15,900 nt of DNA from a virus (taxonomy: Duplodnaviria; Heunggongvirae; Uroviricota; Caudoviricetes). Location: the IMG/VR virus record IMGVR_UViG_2695420863_000009; one strand, given 5' to 3'. Positions within the stretch are counted from its first letter, which is position 1. Every line of letters starts with the position of its first letter. Position numbers and translations under genes: made by a program. Below the pieces are notes generated by a model. That model worked only from the letters and a program-made list of their open reading frames with translations. It ran no database searches and was not told where the DNA came from. This document shows, one piece after another, positions 270 through 15,900 of the stretch.

Positions 270-271
270 GT

Positions 272-299
272 CCATAAGAAAGCCCCTCCGGAGAGGGGC
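272..299 (-). terminator. putative terminator hairpin downstream of the tRNA cluster
   Basis: 7-bp stem gcccctc/gaggggc (282-299) with cgga loop; on the minus strand it is followed by tttctt. The T-run is weak. Confidence 0.3.
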
Positions 300-536
300 T
301 GGAGAGTGGCGCTATGTGCCATTGCATGGTGCCGGGTGCCTCCCGGTGAATTCAGTACCAGCACCTGAATCCGCGATTATCCCATATACCTACTCGCTGA
401 TTGCCCCTCCGCACAGGGGGATTCACCATGCCAGTTTCTTTTAACAAACTCCCCGCAAACCAGACAACAGTCAACCGCCTGAATTGTGAGACATTTAAAA
501 AAAAGGCCCGCAAAAGCGAGCCAGGGAAAATAAGTG

Positions 537-613
537 TGGCGCGTTGTACTGGATTCGAACCAGTGACCGATTGCTTAGAAGGCAATTGCTCTGTCCGGCT
601 GAGCTAACAACGC
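537..613 (-). tRNA. tRNA-Arg (anticodon TCT)
   Basis: Reverse complement folds as a canonical cloverleaf: perfect 7-bp acceptor stem GCGTTGT/ACAACGC, D-stem GCTC/GAGC, anticodon loop CTTCTAA, T-loop TTCGAAT, 3' CCA encoded. It resembles argO of Stx-type lambdoid phages (recollection). Confidence 0.8.
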
Positions 614-626
614 AGGATACAGATAA

Positions 627-703
627 TGGACCGCCTTCGGGGACCCGAACTCCGCGCAACCAGCTTCGAAAGCTGGCGCTCTTTCCTGATGAGCTAATGG
701 CGG
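627..703 (-). tRNA. putative tRNA-Arg (anticodon TCG), possibly degenerate
   Basis: Cloverleaf-like: D-stem GCTC/GAGC, anticodon arm CCAGC-TTTCGAA-GCTGG, CCA encoded. The acceptor stem (A-A at 6-67) and T-stem (A-C) each carry one mismatch, and the T-loop TTCGGGT is atypical. It sits in the position argN holds in Stx-type phages. Confidence 0.5.
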
Positions 704-710
704 TATGTGA

Positions 711-786
711 TGGTGGCCCTTGCTGGATTTGAACCAGCGACCTGGCGATTATGAGTCGCTCGCTCTCACCACTGAGCTAAAGGGCC
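711..786 (-). tRNA. tRNA-Ile2 (lysidine type) or tRNA-Met, anticodon CAT
   Basis: Cloverleaf with acceptor GGCCCTT/AAGGGCC, anticodon loop CTCATAA, T-loop TTCAAAT, CCA encoded. It closely resembles E. coli ileX / phage ileZ as I recall them. Confidence 0.8.
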
Positions 787-814: not shown

Positions 815-1528
815 TCAATAATCAAGCCCTTGCCTGGATACATATCTGTCTGGCGGGAAGCCATAATAGCGGTGAAATACAGAAATAAAGTAGGACCAGC
901 TTGAATAACCGCATTTTTCTGCTACAGCCTGTCCATATCCATGCCGGGAACATAACATATTCACAGCAACACGCATCCGCTCTTCCAGCAACAAGCGACT
1001 GAACATGTGCCCTTCATTTTTCAGTTTTATCTTTAACAAACTCTCACTCATATGCAGGCGTAACGCAATCGCACCAAGCGTCCAGCTTGCTGATATATCT
1101 GTCTGAATTATCGCCCTGACTTTGGTACTTATACTGGATAAACATCCACTTAAAAATAATAATATCCGTTCATCTGATTCAAACAGCGACAGGCATGCCA
1201 TCATAAGAAACATATCCGTGGTATCTCCGGAAAATCTCTGGCTGGTAATTAAAGCCTCAGCCAACGCAGGGTTGTTGGGTTCCAGTGACAGATAAAGCGG
1301 AACGTCAGTCAGATGAGTTCTTGTCAGCTTATGCTGAATTTCCAGATATTGACTTACTATGGAATGGTTTATATCGAAAATTTTAACTTTGCCATAATGC
1401 ATAAGGAAAAGCGCCCTGATGCATTTGGTGGCCAGAACGACTGAGCCGGGCTTAAGTGACAACGTATCCTTTTCAAGAAAAATATTAATTGGGGAGCAAA
1501 CCATGATAACTGAACAGACAACAACCAT
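815..1528 (-). CDS. AraC-family transcriptional regulator (AppY/YdeO/GadX/PatE-like)
   Basis: 237-aa ORF. The C-terminal ~100 aa carry the AraC double-HTH signature (…SESLLKIKLKNEGHMFSRLLLEERMRVAVNMLC…AEKCGYSSWSYFISVFHRYYGFPP). The gene is AT-rich relative to the phage core and has no clear SD. Confidence 0.8.
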   Translation of the reverse strand: MVVVCSVIMVCSPINIFLEKDTLSLKPGSVVLATKCIRALFLMHYGKVKIFDINHSIVSQYLEIQHKLTRTHLTDVPLYLSLEPNNPALAEALITSQRFSGDTTDMFLMMACLSLFESDERILLFLSGCLSSISTKVRAIIQTDISASWTLGAIALRLHMSESLLKIKLKNEGHMFSRLLLEERMRVAVNMLCSRHGYGQAVAEKCGYSSWSYFISVFHRYYGFPPDRYVSRQGLDY

Positions 1529-1654: not shown

Positions 1655-1679
1655 TAAAAAAGCCTTCAGGACTGAAGGC
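1655..1679 (-). terminator. rho-independent terminator
   Basis: Stem gccttca/tgaaggc (1662-1679) with ggac loop; on the minus strand it is followed by a 7-T run (plus-strand A-run 1655-1661). It overlaps the stop codon of the 1666..1863 ORF. Confidence 0.5.
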
Positions 1680-1863
1680 GTCTGTAACAACCGCACTGAT
1701 AGTCTGCCAGACCCGCCATAACAAGCTGGGTCAGTATTAACTGGCAGCGTTCGCGTGAAAGGTAAGTATTCTGCGCAATCTCCCCGACTGTCGCCGGTTC
1801 GGTGACGCTTAATTCATCAAACACAACTCTGGCGGTTTCTGTCATATCCTGCTGTTTCAGCAT
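1666..1863 (-). CDS. small hypothetical protein, possibly a winged-helix DNA-binding protein
   Basis: 65-aa ORF with ATG start and its own terminator. The central segment (TVGEIAQNTYLSRERCQLILTQLVMAGL) looks HTH-like. No family is confidently recognised and the SD is weak. Confidence 0.45.
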   Translation of the reverse strand: MLKQQDMTETARVVFDELSVTEPATVGEIAQNTYLSRERCQLILTQLVMAGLADYQCGCYRRLQS

Positions 1864-1984: not shown

Positions 1985-2009
1985 ACAAAAAACCCGCTCA
2001 GAGGCGGGG
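1985..2009 (-). terminator. rho-independent terminator downstream of the CPBP gene
   Basis: Minus-strand stem cccgc/gcggg with 6-nt loop, followed by ttttttgtg (plus-strand A-run 1987-1992). Confidence 0.5.
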
Positions 2010-2149
2010 TCAAGCTATGCGGCGAAATAACCACTCTTAACAGCATACCTGATTTTTTACGTACGTAAATGCTTTGCCGTGCATATTTTTCATGCAAATG
2101 TCACGTCCTGCTATTTTTCAGTCTTATAAATTTAAAACCATAGAAAAAA

Positions 2150-2968
2150 TCAATTATGTTTTAAAAATGGATAGGTAAAGAATAACAAGTGACACAGATT
2201 CAAACCAAAATGGAAAAGGGTGGCAACCCACAAACGCCCACTCCACATCCATGACAATCCATACACAACACCAGATAACGTGGCAAATAATACAAGTAAA
2301 GCACCACCTGAATAGTGATAAAAACCAAACAACAAAGCCGCCACAATTAATGCAACCAATGGAGACGTTACTTCTGATAGCCGTGATTGAATATACCCTC
2401 TAAATAATGATTCCTCTGCCAGAGACACAAAAAACAAATTAGCCAATATAAACTCTGGCAACCACTCAGGAAAATGAATCTCTGGCTTTAATCCACCAAA
2501 AAAAACAGCCAAAAACAGGATAAGAGGAACAGAGAGCGACAGAGCCCCCCACTTCCACAAAGACACTTCTGATTTTACTTCTTTTTTAAACAAAGAAGAT
2601 GTACACAGGACTAACAAAAATGGCACCAGCGCTTTATCAAAATTAAAATACATTGTATAGGGAGTACTTTGAGGGCCAACAGTAACAGAATTTAGCACTA
2701 CAGGATTGTGAAACCCTGGCCATAGATGGAAAGATAATGCTATGGCTGATAAAACTATGCCAACTTCATATATAGATTTAGCCCAGGCGTTATATTTCCA
2801 GTTGAACTTCAAAATAATAAAAAAAACGATTGTAGCAACAAAAAATAACACCGACCAATCAATAATATCATTAAGCACAGCCAGGACAACAGACACCGTC
2901 AACAATGAAAAAGCCACTACCTTATGCCAACTGAGAGTTGACAGTGACAGTACTAACACAATCCACAT
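2150..2968 (-). CDS. CPBP-family intramembrane metalloprotease (CAAX protease / Abi domain)
   Basis: Polytopic membrane protein with the three CPBP motifs: EExxxR (SLAEESLFRGYIQSRL), FxxxH (LLFGFYHY) and HxxxN (HFGLNLCHLLFF). Strong SD (aaggag, 6 nt) before the ATG at 2968; the track ORF starts 6 nt upstream at a GTG. The gene is markedly AT-rich. Confidence 0.8.
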   Translation of the reverse strand: MWIVLVLSLSTLSWHKVVAFSLLTVSVVLAVLNDIIDWSVLFFVATIVFFIILKFNWKYNAWAKSIYEVGIVLSAIALSFHLWPGFHNPVVLNSVTVGPQSTPYTMYFNFDKALVPFLLVLCTSSLFKKEVKSEVSLWKWGALSLSVPLILFLAVFFGGLKPEIHFPEWLPEFILANLFFVSLAEESLFRGYIQSRLSEVTSPLVALIVAALLFGFYHYSGGALLVLFATLSGVVYGLSWMWSGRLWVATLFHFGLNLCHLLFFTYPFLKHN

Positions 2969-3119
2969 AAGCACTCCTTTTATTTAATGATGAAGATTGA
3001 TTATCAATATTTTCAATTCACCAGGCAACATTTTATCTACCTTCCACAATACATGACCATCAAAAAATAAACATGTTAATTATAAACACAGAAAACATAA
3101 CCCTCATCACTATATATCC

Positions 3120-3491
3120 CTACCGCATATCCATATCTAACCGGACATTCAGAGCCATAAGCATTCCTTCAATAATACCTTCCGCTTTATAAAGCCTTTT
3201 ACCAATAAGCCCATCAGAACATCTATGCTTACGTGCAAGAGCCATAAATGTCATTCCACCTACGTAATAATCCACCAACAAATCGTGCAAATACTGATTA
3301 TTCTTGTTTAATCGTGCCATACAACCACAAATTATCATGGCGTCATCATCAGAACACTGAGGACGTGATTTCACTTTAGTCGGGATTAATCCTTTAAAAC
3401 CAGCAGCTATCGAGGGCCATGTTACATCTTCATGATTATTTGCTGCCCATGCCCCCCATCGCTCAAGAACCATCTGGATATCACGCGCCAT
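3120..3491 (-). CDS. late-gene antiterminator Q (quuD-like)
   Basis: N-terminus [25 protein letters not shown]… and the CGCMARL cysteine motif match the DLP12 QuuD-type Q family as I recall it. Start taken at the ATG at 3491 with SD gaggtgg; the track ORF begins at a GTG 9 nt upstream. It follows rusA, as in DLP12. Confidence 0.7.
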
Positions 3492-5361: not shown

Positions 5362-5517
5362 TTACTCCTCAGGTTCGTAAGCTGTGAAGACAGCGACCTC
5401 CGTCTGGCCGGTTCGGACTCGTACCTCGCAGAGGTCTTTCCTCGTTACCAGTGCCGTCACTATGACGGTTAAACAGATGACGATCAGGGCGATTAACATC
5501 GCCTTTTGCTGCTTCAT
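5362..5517 (-). CDS. hokD: Hok/Gef-family type I toxin (small membrane peptide)
   Basis: 51-aa product MKQQKAMLIALIVICLTVIVTALVTRKDLCEVRVRTGQTEVAVFTAYEPEE, which is near-identical to my recollection of RelF/HokD. SD aaggag precedes the ATG at 5517. The track ORF extends 19 codons further upstream in frame. Confidence 0.85.
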   Translation of the reverse strand: MKQQKAMLIALIVICLTVIVTALVTRKDLCEVRVRTGQTEVAVFTAYEPEE

Positions 5518-5732
5518 AGCCTGCTTCTCCTTGCCTTTCGGCACGTAAGAGGCTAACCTACGTTTGTGAAGCATAGATTGGGCCTCAGATTAATGTTAAG
5601 CGTCTTGCAGGACGCGTAATGTTAACTGGGGCTTTTCTCTGTCTGCCTTACGGTGGCATGCCCGAGGCAGACAGCCTCAAGCACCCGCAGCAATTCTACT
5701 TAACTCTCGCTTTACCGCAAACCGTTTTTACC

Positions 5733-14488: not shown

Positions 14489-15019
14489 GGTCAGGTGGAG
14501 TGCGTGCGCCGGACACGGGTGAGCATCCGGCACTGACAGTTTACTGAAAGGATATGTCCCTGAAAAGTCAGGGCATAACGCGAAAGCGCACGGCGAAATT
14601 GGTCTCTCTGTACGGTGTCGTTAAATTTAGTTCGACCGTGCGCTTCCGGTTGTGGCACTCCGCGAAATGGCGCGGCGGTAAGTATGGCTGGGGTTTCCTC
14701 CATTGCTCCAGAAAATGCACCGGGTTGTCAGGTTGACCATACGCTTAAGTGACAACCCCGCTACAACGCCCTCTGTTATCAATTTTCTGGTGACATTTGG
14801 CGGTATCAGTTTTACTCCGTGACTGCTCTGCCGCCCTTTTTAAAGTGAATTTTGTGATGCGGTGAATGCGGCTATGCGCACGCGGAACAGTTAAAGCAGT
14901 AAGGCGGTATTTTACGGGCGTAACGAGCATCAACTAACCCGGCGTTAATTGTTAACTGGTTAACGTCACCTGGAGGCACCAGGCACTGCATCACAAAATT
15001 CATTGTTGAGGACGCGATA
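14489..15019 (+). repeat. repeat copy 2: structured leader + dicF + dicB 5'-UTR
   Basis: Aligns with copy 1 across its length with scattered substitutions and a small insertion. Confidence 0.8.
14784..14836 (+). ncRNA. dicF: DicF-like sRNA, copy 2 (G-to-A variant)
   Basis: Same 53 nt as copy 1 except A at position 12 (GTGACATTTGG vs GTGACGTTTGG); followed by TTTTT. Confidence 0.75.
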
Positions 15020-15208
15020 ATGGAAACGTTATTACCAAACGTTAATACGTCTGAAGGTTGTTTTGAAATTGGTGTCACTATCAGTAACCCTGTATTTACT
15101 GAAGATGCCATTAACAAGAGAAAACACGAACGGGAGTTATTAAATAAAATATGCATTCTTTCAATGCTGGCCCGTTTACGTCCGATACAAAAAGGATGTG
15201 CACAATGA
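15020..15208 (+). CDS. dicB: cell-division inhibitor DicB
   Basis: 62 aa, METLLPNVNTSEGCFEIGVTISNPVFTEDAINKRKHERELLNKICILSMLARLRPIQKGCAQ; near-identical to my recollection of K-12 DicB. Lies downstream of dicF as in Qin. Confidence 0.8.
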   Translation: METLLPNVNTSEGCFEIGVTISNPVFTEDAINKRKHERELLNKICILSMLARLRPIQKGCAQ

Positions 15209-15396
15209 ATACAGCATTTGCACTTGTTCTGACAGTTTTTCTTGTTTCCGGAGAGCCAGTTGATATTGCAGTCAGTGTTCACAGGACAATGCAGGAGTGT
15301 GTGACTGCAGCAACCGAACAGAAAATTCCCGGTAACTGTTACCCGGTCGATAAAGTTATTCACCAGGATAATAACGAAATCCCGGCAGGTCTTTAA
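15205..15396 (+). CDS. ydfD: YdfD-like small membrane/lysis protein
   Basis: 63 aa, MNTAFALVLTVFLVSGEPVDIAVSVHRTMQECVTAATEQKIPGNCYPVDKVIHQDNNEIPAGL; ATGA overlap with the dicB stop. Confidence 0.7.
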   Translation: MNTAFALVLTVFLVSGEPVDIAVSVHRTMQECVTAATEQKIPGNCYPVDKVIHQDNNEIPAGL

Positions 15397-15488
15397 AACA
15401 GTTCCGTAATAAATATCCGGTTTCATTCTTATATGCCAGCAATGGCAGGGATTTGTTCACCCTTAAATCTGTAATGAGGTAAAACAAA

Positions 15489-15550
15489 ATGAGTAAAGTC
15501 TTTATTTGCGCCGCCATTCCGGACGAACAGGCAATAAAGGAAGAAGGTGC
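15489..15550 (+). CDS. 5' fragment of an ORF truncated by the assembly gap
   Basis: ATG with SD gagg; MSKVFICAAIPDEQAIKEEGA… runs into the N-run. Confidence 0.3.
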
Positions 15551-15574
15551 NNNNNNNNNNNNNNNNNNNNNNNN
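15551..15574. other. assembly gap (24 N)
   Basis: Run of N; the sequence resumes inside the leader repeat. Confidence 0.95.
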
Positions 15575-15869
15575 GACACCGGGTTGTCAGGTTGACCATA
15601 CGCTTAAGTGACAACCCCGCTGCAACGCCCTCTGTTATCAATTTTCTGGTGACGTTTGGCGGTATCAGTTTTACTCCGTGACTGCTCTGCCGCCCTTTTT
15701 AAAGTGAATTTTGTGATGCGGTGAATGCGGCTGAGCGCACGCGGAACAGTTAAAACCAAAAACAGTGTTATGGGGGGATTCTCTGTATCCGGCGTTAATT
15801 GTTAACTGGTTAACGTCACCTGGAGGCACCAGGCACCGCATCACAAAATTCATTGTTGAGGACGCGATA
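15575..15869 (+). repeat. repeat copy 3 (partial leader + dicF + dicB 5'-UTR)
   Basis: Identical to copy 1 over the shared region 12785-13032, then continues into a dicB start. Confidence 0.8.
15643..15695 (+). ncRNA. dicF: DicF-like sRNA, copy 3
   Basis: Identical to copy 1; followed by TTTTT. Confidence 0.75.
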
Positions 15870-15900
15870 ATGGAAACGTTATTACCAAACGTTAATACGT
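15870..15900 (+). CDS. dicB: dicB 5' end, truncated by the window edge
   Basis: ATGGAAACGTTATTACCAAACGTTAATACGT encodes METLLPNVNT, identical to the dicB start at 15020. Confidence 0.6.
   Translation, partial: METLLPNVNT

Follow-up and report, generated by a model that had tools for sequence, protein, structure and literature searches.

A CPBP-family membrane protease gene between Q and the predicted late promoter of Sp4-type Escherichia coli prophages: chromosomal relatives, phage linkage and a possible role in the lysogen envelope

Why would a lambdoid prophage carry a gene for an intramembrane protease directly beside its antiterminator gene Q, and when would that gene be expressed? The question arises from IMG/VR record IMGVR_UViG_2695420863_000009, a 15,900-nt stretch of DNA from a virus of the Caudoviricetes (the whole stretch is called the window below), in which a minus-strand open reading frame (ORF) at 2150-2968 encodes a protein of the CPBP/Abi family. 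An initial annotation, made from the letters of the window, had read this gene as AT-rich cargo with its own terminator, placed in the pR'-driven slot that holds the toxin genes in Shiga toxin (Stx) phages. The answer to which we give about an even chance is a different one in part: an add-on gene, expressed in the lysogen, that would do an ancestral proteolytic job on a membrane-associated envelope substrate.

The ORF starts at an ATG (2968-2966), 5 nt after the ribosome-binding site (RBS) AAGGAG (2979-2974, minus strand), and encodes 272 amino acids (aa). Its product is identical to RefSeq WP_000265267.1, a 'CPBP family intramembrane glutamic endopeptidase', and the ORF is ECs1085 of prophage Sp4 in E. 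coli O157:H7 Sakai, annotated there as 'phage CAAX amino terminal protease family protein'. The Pfam family Rce1-like (PF02517) matched residues 169-258 with 70.6 bits (cut-off 22.4; E=1.4e-19; profile positions 3-92 of 93). All three motifs of the family are complete, namely EESLFR at 185 (EExxxR), FGFYH at 214 (FxxxH) and HFGLN at 253 (HxxxN/D). In a family alignment of 73 sequences, E185, E186, R190, H218 and H253 are invariant and N257 occurs in at least 90%, and this catalytic set is complete in the phage protein. Phage and chromosomal copies have 48 family-invariant columns in common, and the phage copies keep all 48 residues. The protein also has the polytopic helical membrane fold of the Rce1 type. 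The full-length PHROG for the protein, phrog_13291, is labelled function unknown. A sequence search of PDB gave no match, and the viral structures in BFVD yielded only weak matches to CAAX proteases of giant viruses and of Bacillus phage G, none at E<=0.001. Taken together, the gene is predicted to encode a protease that sits in the inner membrane with several helices and has the CPBP (Rce1/SpdC) fold. The family assignment made in the initial annotation was thus borne out by the Pfam match and the RefSeq entry, as were the three intact motifs, whose catalytic residues lie in invariant or near-invariant columns, and the RBS.

To see where such a gene may have come from, we looked at its relatives. 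Homologues with 45-54% identity are single-copy genes in about 80 species of Enterobacterales, in the genera Photorhabdus, Xenorhabdus, Serratia, Proteus, Morganella, Enterobacter, Cedecea, Pantoea and Dickeya. Most of these copies lie at one syntenic locus, with modE/modABC on one side and gpmA/aroG/pnuC on the other. The Pseudomonas aeruginosa orthologue, which by gene order is PA5132 ('putative protease'), is 60% identical over 203 aa and has a GC content of 0.70, with gpmI on one side and, on the other, a gene for an M23 peptidase followed by that of CtpA; because of this composition and the native neighbourhood, contamination or recent transfer was rejected. The chromosomal orthologues resemble the phage protein in length (about 270-276 aa), in identity (45-60%), in the 48 invariant residues, in the three catalytic motifs and in two extra blocks, HLxPGFxN and GPxSxPxxMYxNxDKAxxPF, and like the phage gene they are single genes without a partner. 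They differ in their fixed chromosomal site and host-like composition, whereas the phage copy is AT-rich and stands between Q and pR'. In its behaviour the ancestral gene is akin to core genes of the envelope and not to genes of defence or immunity. A neighbour-joining tree groups the phage-borne copies together with the chromosomal P0010 and P0011 interleaved, an arrangement that would fit a single capture or two. No chromosomal copy in E. coli was present among the homologues found; the prophage therefore appears to be the only source of the gene in this species.

A transposon insertion in the promoter of P. aeruginosa PA5132 suppressed the hyper-biofilm of tpbA, and the single mutant made less biofilm (PMC2691606). 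This is the sole phenotype found for any relative, and it may be a polar effect. As a separate observation, gpmA adjoins the CPBP gene in 45 of the 80 Enterobacterales loci (L020-L099) and gpmI does so in P. aeruginosa (L013). The two enzymes are unrelated, and the phosphoglycerate mutase neighbours in both lineages may be a coincidence or a clue.

The distribution of the phage-borne gene was assessed in 5426 complete E. coli genomes. The CPBP coding sequence (CDS) was found in 574 of them (~11%), one copy each, with 548 genomes at >=99% identity and 20 at 95-99%, and the reading frame is intact in 572. The Q allele of the window (3120-3491) gave the same genome counts, 548 at >=99% and 20 at 95-99%. 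This Q allele and the CPBP gene are inherited together as one module, in one-to-one linkage. Q lies directly 5' of the CPBP gene in 42 of 44 IMG/VR loci and in all prophage contexts retrieved. Carriers include enterohaemorrhagic E. coli (EHEC) O157:H7, O26, O111, O145 and O103 and some Stx1 prophages; the prophage type in the window is Sp4/CP-933M of EHEC. Among prophage copies protein identity falls to 55-84% with the frame intact, and dN/dS is 0.10-0.30, with synonymous sites often saturated (dS up to >2). These ratios and the intact frame indicate that the gene is functional in phages and is no debris. The closest homologues (55-100% identity) are all prophage-borne, and the possibility raised in the initial annotation, that close homologues would be solely chromosomal housekeeping genes, did not materialise. 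One IMG/VR locus (L141, 47% identity) was left out of the phage-borne copies because the gene, which lies past the tail-fibre genes and beside a lytic polysaccharide monooxygenase (LPMO) gene, is probably in the host flank.

In the window the gene stands in the following order of features.

4914-3865, minus strand: DUF968 gene, GC 0.527
3852-3481, minus strand: RusA gene, GC 0.535
3120-3491, minus strand: Q21-type Q antiterminator gene (PF06530, E=4.9e-52; RefSeq CDS of 372 nt), GC 0.419
3000-3028, minus strand: candidate sigma-70 promoter of the CPBP gene (consensus scan and conservation across variants)
2974-2979, minus strand: RBS AAGGAG, read in the sequence
2150-2968, minus strand: gene for the CPBP/Rce1-like intramembrane glutamic endopeptidase, 272 aa (Pfam, RefSeq)
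2042-2069, minus strand: inferred late promoter pR' (comparative alignment)
2028-2041, minus strand: initial transcribed region GTTAAGAGTGGTTA, candidate sigma-dependent pause site (conservation across phages)
1987-2008, minus strand: intrinsic terminator tR', CCCGC/GCGGG stem and T6 (terminator prediction, shared architecture)
1666-1863, minus strand: TrmB-like small ORF, 65 aa, first gene past tR' (phrog_331, E=6e-37)
815-1528, minus strand: gene for an AraC-family YdeO/GadX-like regulator, second cargo gene (Pfam HTH_18, HTH_AraC)
537-786, minus strand: tRNA genes ileZ-argN-argO (ARAGORN, Rfam, Sakai annotation)

As the initial annotation had stated, the CPBP gene lies directly downstream of Q, with a gap of 151 nt. 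Besides PF06530, a remote match in sequence (E=6.9e-8) to 6p18, a solved structure of Q21, speaks for the assignment of Q. The CPBP gene has a GC content of 0.379 and a GC content at third codon positions (GC3) of 0.352. It is indeed more AT-rich than RusA and DUF968, as had been noted, but the AT-rich block extends beyond the gene, because Q itself and the Q-CPBP spacer (GC 0.285) are AT-rich too.

Comparison with related phages shows what the region looks like when the gene is missing. In the Stx2 phage 1720a-02, Q is followed after 37 nt by homology to window 2042-1594, a stretch with both terminator and small ORF. This phage has no CPBP gene and no spacer upstream of it, and homology to the window restarts at 2042, so that the gene is inserted between sites that are adjacent in a relative. 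The base composition deviates as well (0.379 against 0.527-0.535), with Q also low. The isolated phage PhiR40_1, whose Q is 80% identical to that of the window, has neither the CPBP gene nor its spacer. There the interval between Q and pR' holds a reverse-strand gene (L017 3458-3904) for a 148-aa protein that starts MNKMTVLLLSATIISGC, and in Stx2a_1447 (L019 884-2447) the same slot holds two reverse-strand genes, for 179 and 343 aa. PADLOC gave no match for this cargo of PhiR40_1 and Stx2a_1447, and Pfam gave a weak sub-threshold match for the 179-aa protein only. By eye, the start of the 148-aa protein resembles a lipoprotein signal. The comparison with 1720a-02, which runs from Q straight into the sequence that follows the CPBP gene, supports the earlier proposal of a cargo gene next to Q: the CPBP gene is probably horizontally acquired cargo, a single-gene add-on ('moron').

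Whether this cargo belongs to the late operon depends on the position of pR'. Downstream of the CPBP gene the sequence consists of TTTACGTACGTAAA (2069-2056), 8 nt, a TATGCT -10 hexamer (2047-2042), GTTAAGAGTGGTTA (2041-2028) and a hairpin with T6 (2008-1987). This hairpin, CCCGCCTCTGAGCGGG followed by T6, is the only good intrinsic terminator and lies 142 nt beyond the CPBP stop codon; none was found between the stop (2150) and pR' (2069). The same pR'-tR' architecture occurs directly after Q in 1720a-02, where the block occupies the ~70 nt between Q and the terminator, the sole room for pR'. It also occurs in PhiR40_1 after the one reverse-strand cargo gene, and a single promoter and terminator unit precedes the lysis genes of this phage, namely the TTTACAATCGTAAA...TATGCT block, whose homologue in the window lies at 2069-2042. 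In Stx2a_1447 it comes after the two reverse-strand genes and is followed by a methylase gene, tRNA genes and stx2AB. At the aligned position phage SfV has a lambda-type promoter, TTGCAT-17-TAAGAT, then AACGAT, which we take to be the pause element of lambda, and a homologous hairpin that is annotated as a terminator.

The upstream element of this block follows the Q group. Five Q proteins that are 80-95% identical all go with TTTAC(G/A)(T/A)(A/T)CGTAAA, and two Q proteins only 42-50% identical to that group go with ACGCGTACGCAAA or GCGCGGTCCGCAAA. In contrast, the remainder of the unit, from the -10 hexamer through the leader to the terminator, does not change with the Q group, and GTTAAGAGTGGTTA is near-invariant despite Q identities of 42-50%. 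Such co-variation is the pattern expected for a Q-binding element beside a common pause site and terminator, and GTTAAGAGTGGTTA would be the candidate sigma-dependent pause site by analogy with the general Q-cassette architecture of pause and terminator (10.1101/651190). The palindromic element TTTACGTACGTAAA occurs once only in the window. Of the 41 IMG/VR loci whose Q is of the Q21 type, 40 have the pR' element 79-104 nt past the CPBP stop. In 9 loci the distance between the Q-specific element and tR' is fixed at 59-63 nt. No Rfam family covers the short pR' leader. Since phages without the CPBP gene share the unit and since the upstream element of the unit follows the Q type, we infer that pR' and tR' (about 2069-1987) lie downstream of the CPBP gene and that the gene stands between Q and pR'. 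For the same reason, the hairpin at 2008-1987, which the initial annotation had assigned to the gene, is real but would be the shared tR', and a place for the gene in the pR'-driven slot of stx is not supported. An arrangement with the gene between pR' and tR', made constitutively from pR', was also considered and rejected, since the homology with phages that lack CPBP and the co-variation with Q type speak against it.

The candidate promoter of the gene is TTGCCT-17 nt-GATAAT, with 31 nt between its end and the ATG. When 12 distinct variants down to ~85% identity were compared, the Q-CPBP spacer proved best conserved at AAATGTTGCC...AAATATTGATAAT. Among these variants the -35 is TTGCCT, TTGCCA or TTGTCA, the 17-nt spacing is fixed and GATAAT is invariant. 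The more distant variants, at 62% and 59%, have TTGCAT-18-TATAAA and TTGACA-19-TATAAT at a similar distance from the gene. From this conservation, TTGCCT-17-GATAAT is likely, but unproven, to be the gene's own sigma-70 promoter. A tandem 9-bp repeat, ATTGAAAAT/ATTGATAAT (window 3002-3019, minus strand), spans the promoter spacer and the -10; variants keep it, and a regulator might bind there. A terminator scan found none between Q and the CPBP gene, so early rightward transcription that reaches Q should run into the CPBP gene. In lysogens of Stx phages pR' is constitutively active and its transcripts stop at tR' (PMC7547250), which we regard as suggestive here. According to this scheme, the CPBP gene would be transcribed in the lysogen from its own conserved sigma-70 promoter, with transcripts ending at the shared tR'. 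In early lytic growth it would also be read through with Q from the early rightward operon, whereas the late transcript under antitermination by Q, to which stx belongs in Stx phages, would not include it.

The arrangement varies in other prophage lineages. In an Stx1 prophage with an 84%-identical variant (L010 7479-10833; also L011 and L012) the order is Q, CPBP, pR', a reverse ORF and stx1AB. Here the Q-pR' slot and the stx slot are both filled, in series, and the tR' hairpin after the conserved pR' element has decayed. In the lineage with a lambda-type Q (PF03589; L007 and L139) the order is Q, pR' (TTGATT-18-TATGCT, then TCTAAT), tR', CPBP and holin, and only in this lineage does the gene lie downstream of the pR'-tR' unit, as late-operon cargo would. 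Thus, by gene order, the CPBP gene appears on either side of the Q/pR' junction across lineages. In the 83% variant, 800 nt with the pR'-tR' unit separate CPBP from the holin gene, with no annotated gene between them in L149. In a prophage with the 62% variant, the 24-nt sequence CTAGATATTGCATGCAATATCTAG (L002 7858-7885) is a perfect palindrome that overlaps the stop codon of Q; as no T-run follows, it is not an intrinsic terminator.

Next to this anatomy stands the question of function. In our preferred reading, lambdoid phages would have captured the gene from a chromosomal gamma-proteobacterial lineage and kept it under purifying selection, in the Sp4/CP-933M type as one co-inherited Q-CPBP-pR' module. 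Because every invariant residue of the orthologues is retained, the phage protein most likely does the same biochemical job as they do. That job would be to cleave or process a membrane-associated envelope substrate. E. coli lysogens would then gain a function that is chromosomal in Serratia, Proteus, Photorhabdus, Enterobacter, Dickeya and Pseudomonas, which would amount to lysogenic conversion at the envelope and not to a device dedicated to phage defence or toxin immunity. Literature searches on CPBP or CAAX proteins in prophage, anti-phage and O157 contexts gave no result that bears on E. coli, and the gene is not listed in the supplements of the EHEC modulon paper.

Known systems resemble the gene in part. 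The best structural match of the protein is Staphylococcus aureus SpdC/LyrA (PDB 6U0O), with an identity of only 14%; SpdC is a Gram-positive scaffold of the CPBP fold that partners the glucosaminidase SagB, whereas the phage gene has no partner gene. Identity to the type II CAAX prenyl protease Rce1 (PDB 4CAD) is 17%. The substrates of Rce1 are prenylated CAAX proteins, and E. coli is not known to make such proteins. The Abi/CPBP immunity proteins of Firmicutes (PlnI, SkkI, SagE and others) belong to the same Pfam family and have the same conserved motifs. Such proteins reportedly act in bacteriocin self-immunity and are encoded inside bacteriocin operons, as Kjos and colleagues are said to have described in 2010. 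They differ from the phage gene in being Gram-positive and part of bacteriocin operons, and no bacteriocin gene was found near the phage gene or its orthologues. Instead of a cognate bacteriocin, the phage gene has Q, pR', a small helix-turn-helix (HTH) ORF and an AraC regulator as neighbours, and the chromosomal genes have mod, gpmA, aroG and pnuC. Among phage cargo, stxAB, nanS-p and the genes of the Psr/PatE regulators were likewise acquired, are AT-rich and are found in EHEC prophages between Q and the lysis genes; they lie downstream of pR'-tR', in contrast to the CPBP gene, which would occupy a separate slot upstream of pR'.

The initial annotation had taken the gene for a candidate lysogen-benefit or exclusion gene. 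On this view a protease made in the lysogen might block a superinfecting phage, by abortive infection or at injection, or inactivate a membrane-targeting bacteriocin, and we consider this possible but unlikely. It would fit the family tie to the bacteriocin self-immunity 'Abi' proteins, the purifying selection within phages, the probable own promoter together with an array signal in uninduced cells, and the varied, unexplained cargo in the Q-pR' slot of related phages; moreover, prophage inner-membrane proteins in add-on slots are often exclusion factors. However, PADLOC-DB 2.0 gave no match at E<=1 for the CPBP protein and none for the alternative cargo of the slot, and no bacteriocin, toxin or partner gene adjoins it in any context looked at. 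The next relatives, single-copy genes at a fixed chromosomal site in about 80 species, would be unusual as defence or immunity genes, and a literature search found no link of CPBP proteins to anti-phage defence. A use in the lytic cycle seems quite unlikely to us: the protease, produced together with Q or encoded by the first late gene, would remodel the envelope for the phage and perhaps tune lysis timing via holin, antiholin, spanin or a host cell-wall hydrolase. Close relatives with 80-85% identical Q, such as PhiR40_1, manage without the gene, which is dispensable for lytic growth as judged by its absence from 50,697 deposited phage genomes; its conserved promoter and the array signal point to expression in the lysogen, and its orthologues are chromosomal genes unconnected with phages. 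These points outweigh, in our estimate, the co-orientation with Q and the missing terminator between them, the one-to-one linkage with the Q allele, the place immediately before holin in the lambda-type-Q relatives, the 800 nt to holin in the 83% variant, the partnership of SpdC with a peptidoglycan hydrolase and the M23 peptidase and CtpA beside the Pseudomonas orthologue. A broader version joins both ideas. In it, lambdoid phages took up a gamma-proteobacterial envelope protease gene of the PA5132 type, which became fixed where Q and pR' meet for a specific, conflict-related advantage to phage or lysogen, blocking superinfection or a membrane-targeting toxin, or setting lysis timing via a host cell-wall hydrolase by analogy with SpdC-SagB; this proposal we hold only tentatively, with a minor share of our confidence. 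If its blocking variant were true, this might be the first CPBP from a Gram-negative phage with such an activity.

The reading as pR'-driven late cargo like stx, with pR' in the Q-CPBP spacer and the gene as the first Q-dependent late gene or between pR' and tR', is very unlikely. The gene does adjoin Q, the spacer has a conserved promoter-like block with the tandem repeat, the sole strong terminator lies 3' of the gene, and in the lambda-type-Q lineage the gene does follow pR'-tR'. Yet PhiR40_1, which lacks both gene and spacer, has the TTTACAATCGTAAA...TATGCT block as its only promoter-terminator unit, 1720a-02 has the same block in its short interval after Q, the upstream element varies with the Q group, and the palindrome is found nowhere else in the window. 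That the gene is a neutral passenger, a hitch-hiking or decaying host fragment functionless in the prophage, is hardly credible. Sp4-type prophages do hold insertion sequence (IS) elements and pseudogenes, and the gene is missing from sequenced free phages, but the frame intact in 572 genomes, the low dN/dS despite saturated synonymous sites, the retention of all 48 family-invariant residues and the conserved RBS and promoter block speak against it. Several points weigh against the envelope reading itself. A tblastn search of the CPBP protein against 50,697 INPHARED phage records gave no match, and long retention in phages is difficult to account for by a 'housekeeping' benefit alone. The position directly before holin in the lambda-type-Q relatives makes a lytic-cycle role possible. 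The placement of pR' was reached by comparison between phages. Finally, promoter-like hexamers number 10 against 5.4 +/- 2.5 in shuffles, about twofold, in this AT-rich region, and because they are so frequent here the gene's own promoter is not proven.

The remainder of the window was annotated as well. The AraC-family regulator (815-1528) lies 620 nt downstream of the CPBP gene and is Psr/PatE-like; NCBIfam gave YdeO (1e-29) and GadX (1e-25), both below cut-off. PsrA, PsrB and PatE are prophage AraC regulators (reviewed in PMC10877973). Regulators of this kind control acid resistance and type III secretion in EHEC. The gene encodes 237 aa here, and its Sakai counterpart ECs1087 is annotated as only 588 nt. 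In phiP27, SfV and many Stx2 phages, too, the TrmB-like small ORF comes after the pR'-tR' unit. The tRNA genes ileZ-argN-argO mark the start of the stx slot in Stx phages, and in Stx2a_1447 stx2AB comes after them. Just past the tRNA cluster, at the stx position of Stx phages, Rfam matched the small RNA STnc100 (window 270-460, minus strand, 138 bits, cut-off 47). In complete genomes the nanS-p esterase gene and the lysis genes come next. The early region holds a hok-family toxin ORF with sok antisense RNA (5362-5686, minus strand; Rfam 117.5 bits). At the other end, DicF occurs three times on the plus strand (12851-12902, 14785-14836 and 15644-15695), within direct repeats at 12782-13032, 14716-14966 and 15575-15825, and N runs lie nearby (13033-13043 and 15551-15574). 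The best-matching complete genomes cover only 13.6 kb against the 15.9-kb window, and this end (11900-15900) looks like a scaffolding or assembly duplication, not a true triplication.

The annotation of the gene, its family, its fold and the concept of add-on genes were already known. New are its exact placement relative to pR', the one-to-one linkage with the Q allele, the origin in a conserved chromosomal lineage and the occurrence in some Stx1 prophages. For annotation, this gives a corrected anatomy in which Q21-type phages would have a cargo slot between Q and pR', separate from the stx slot, and genes in this slot would not be under Q control. The gene is a reasonable target for experiment, although the result would not greatly surprise a specialist. 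E. coli apparently has this otherwise widespread enterobacterial protease only by way of a prophage, and any effect of the gene on colonisation, on envelope homeostasis, on the exclusion of phages or on the timing of lysis would give a first way into the whole family.

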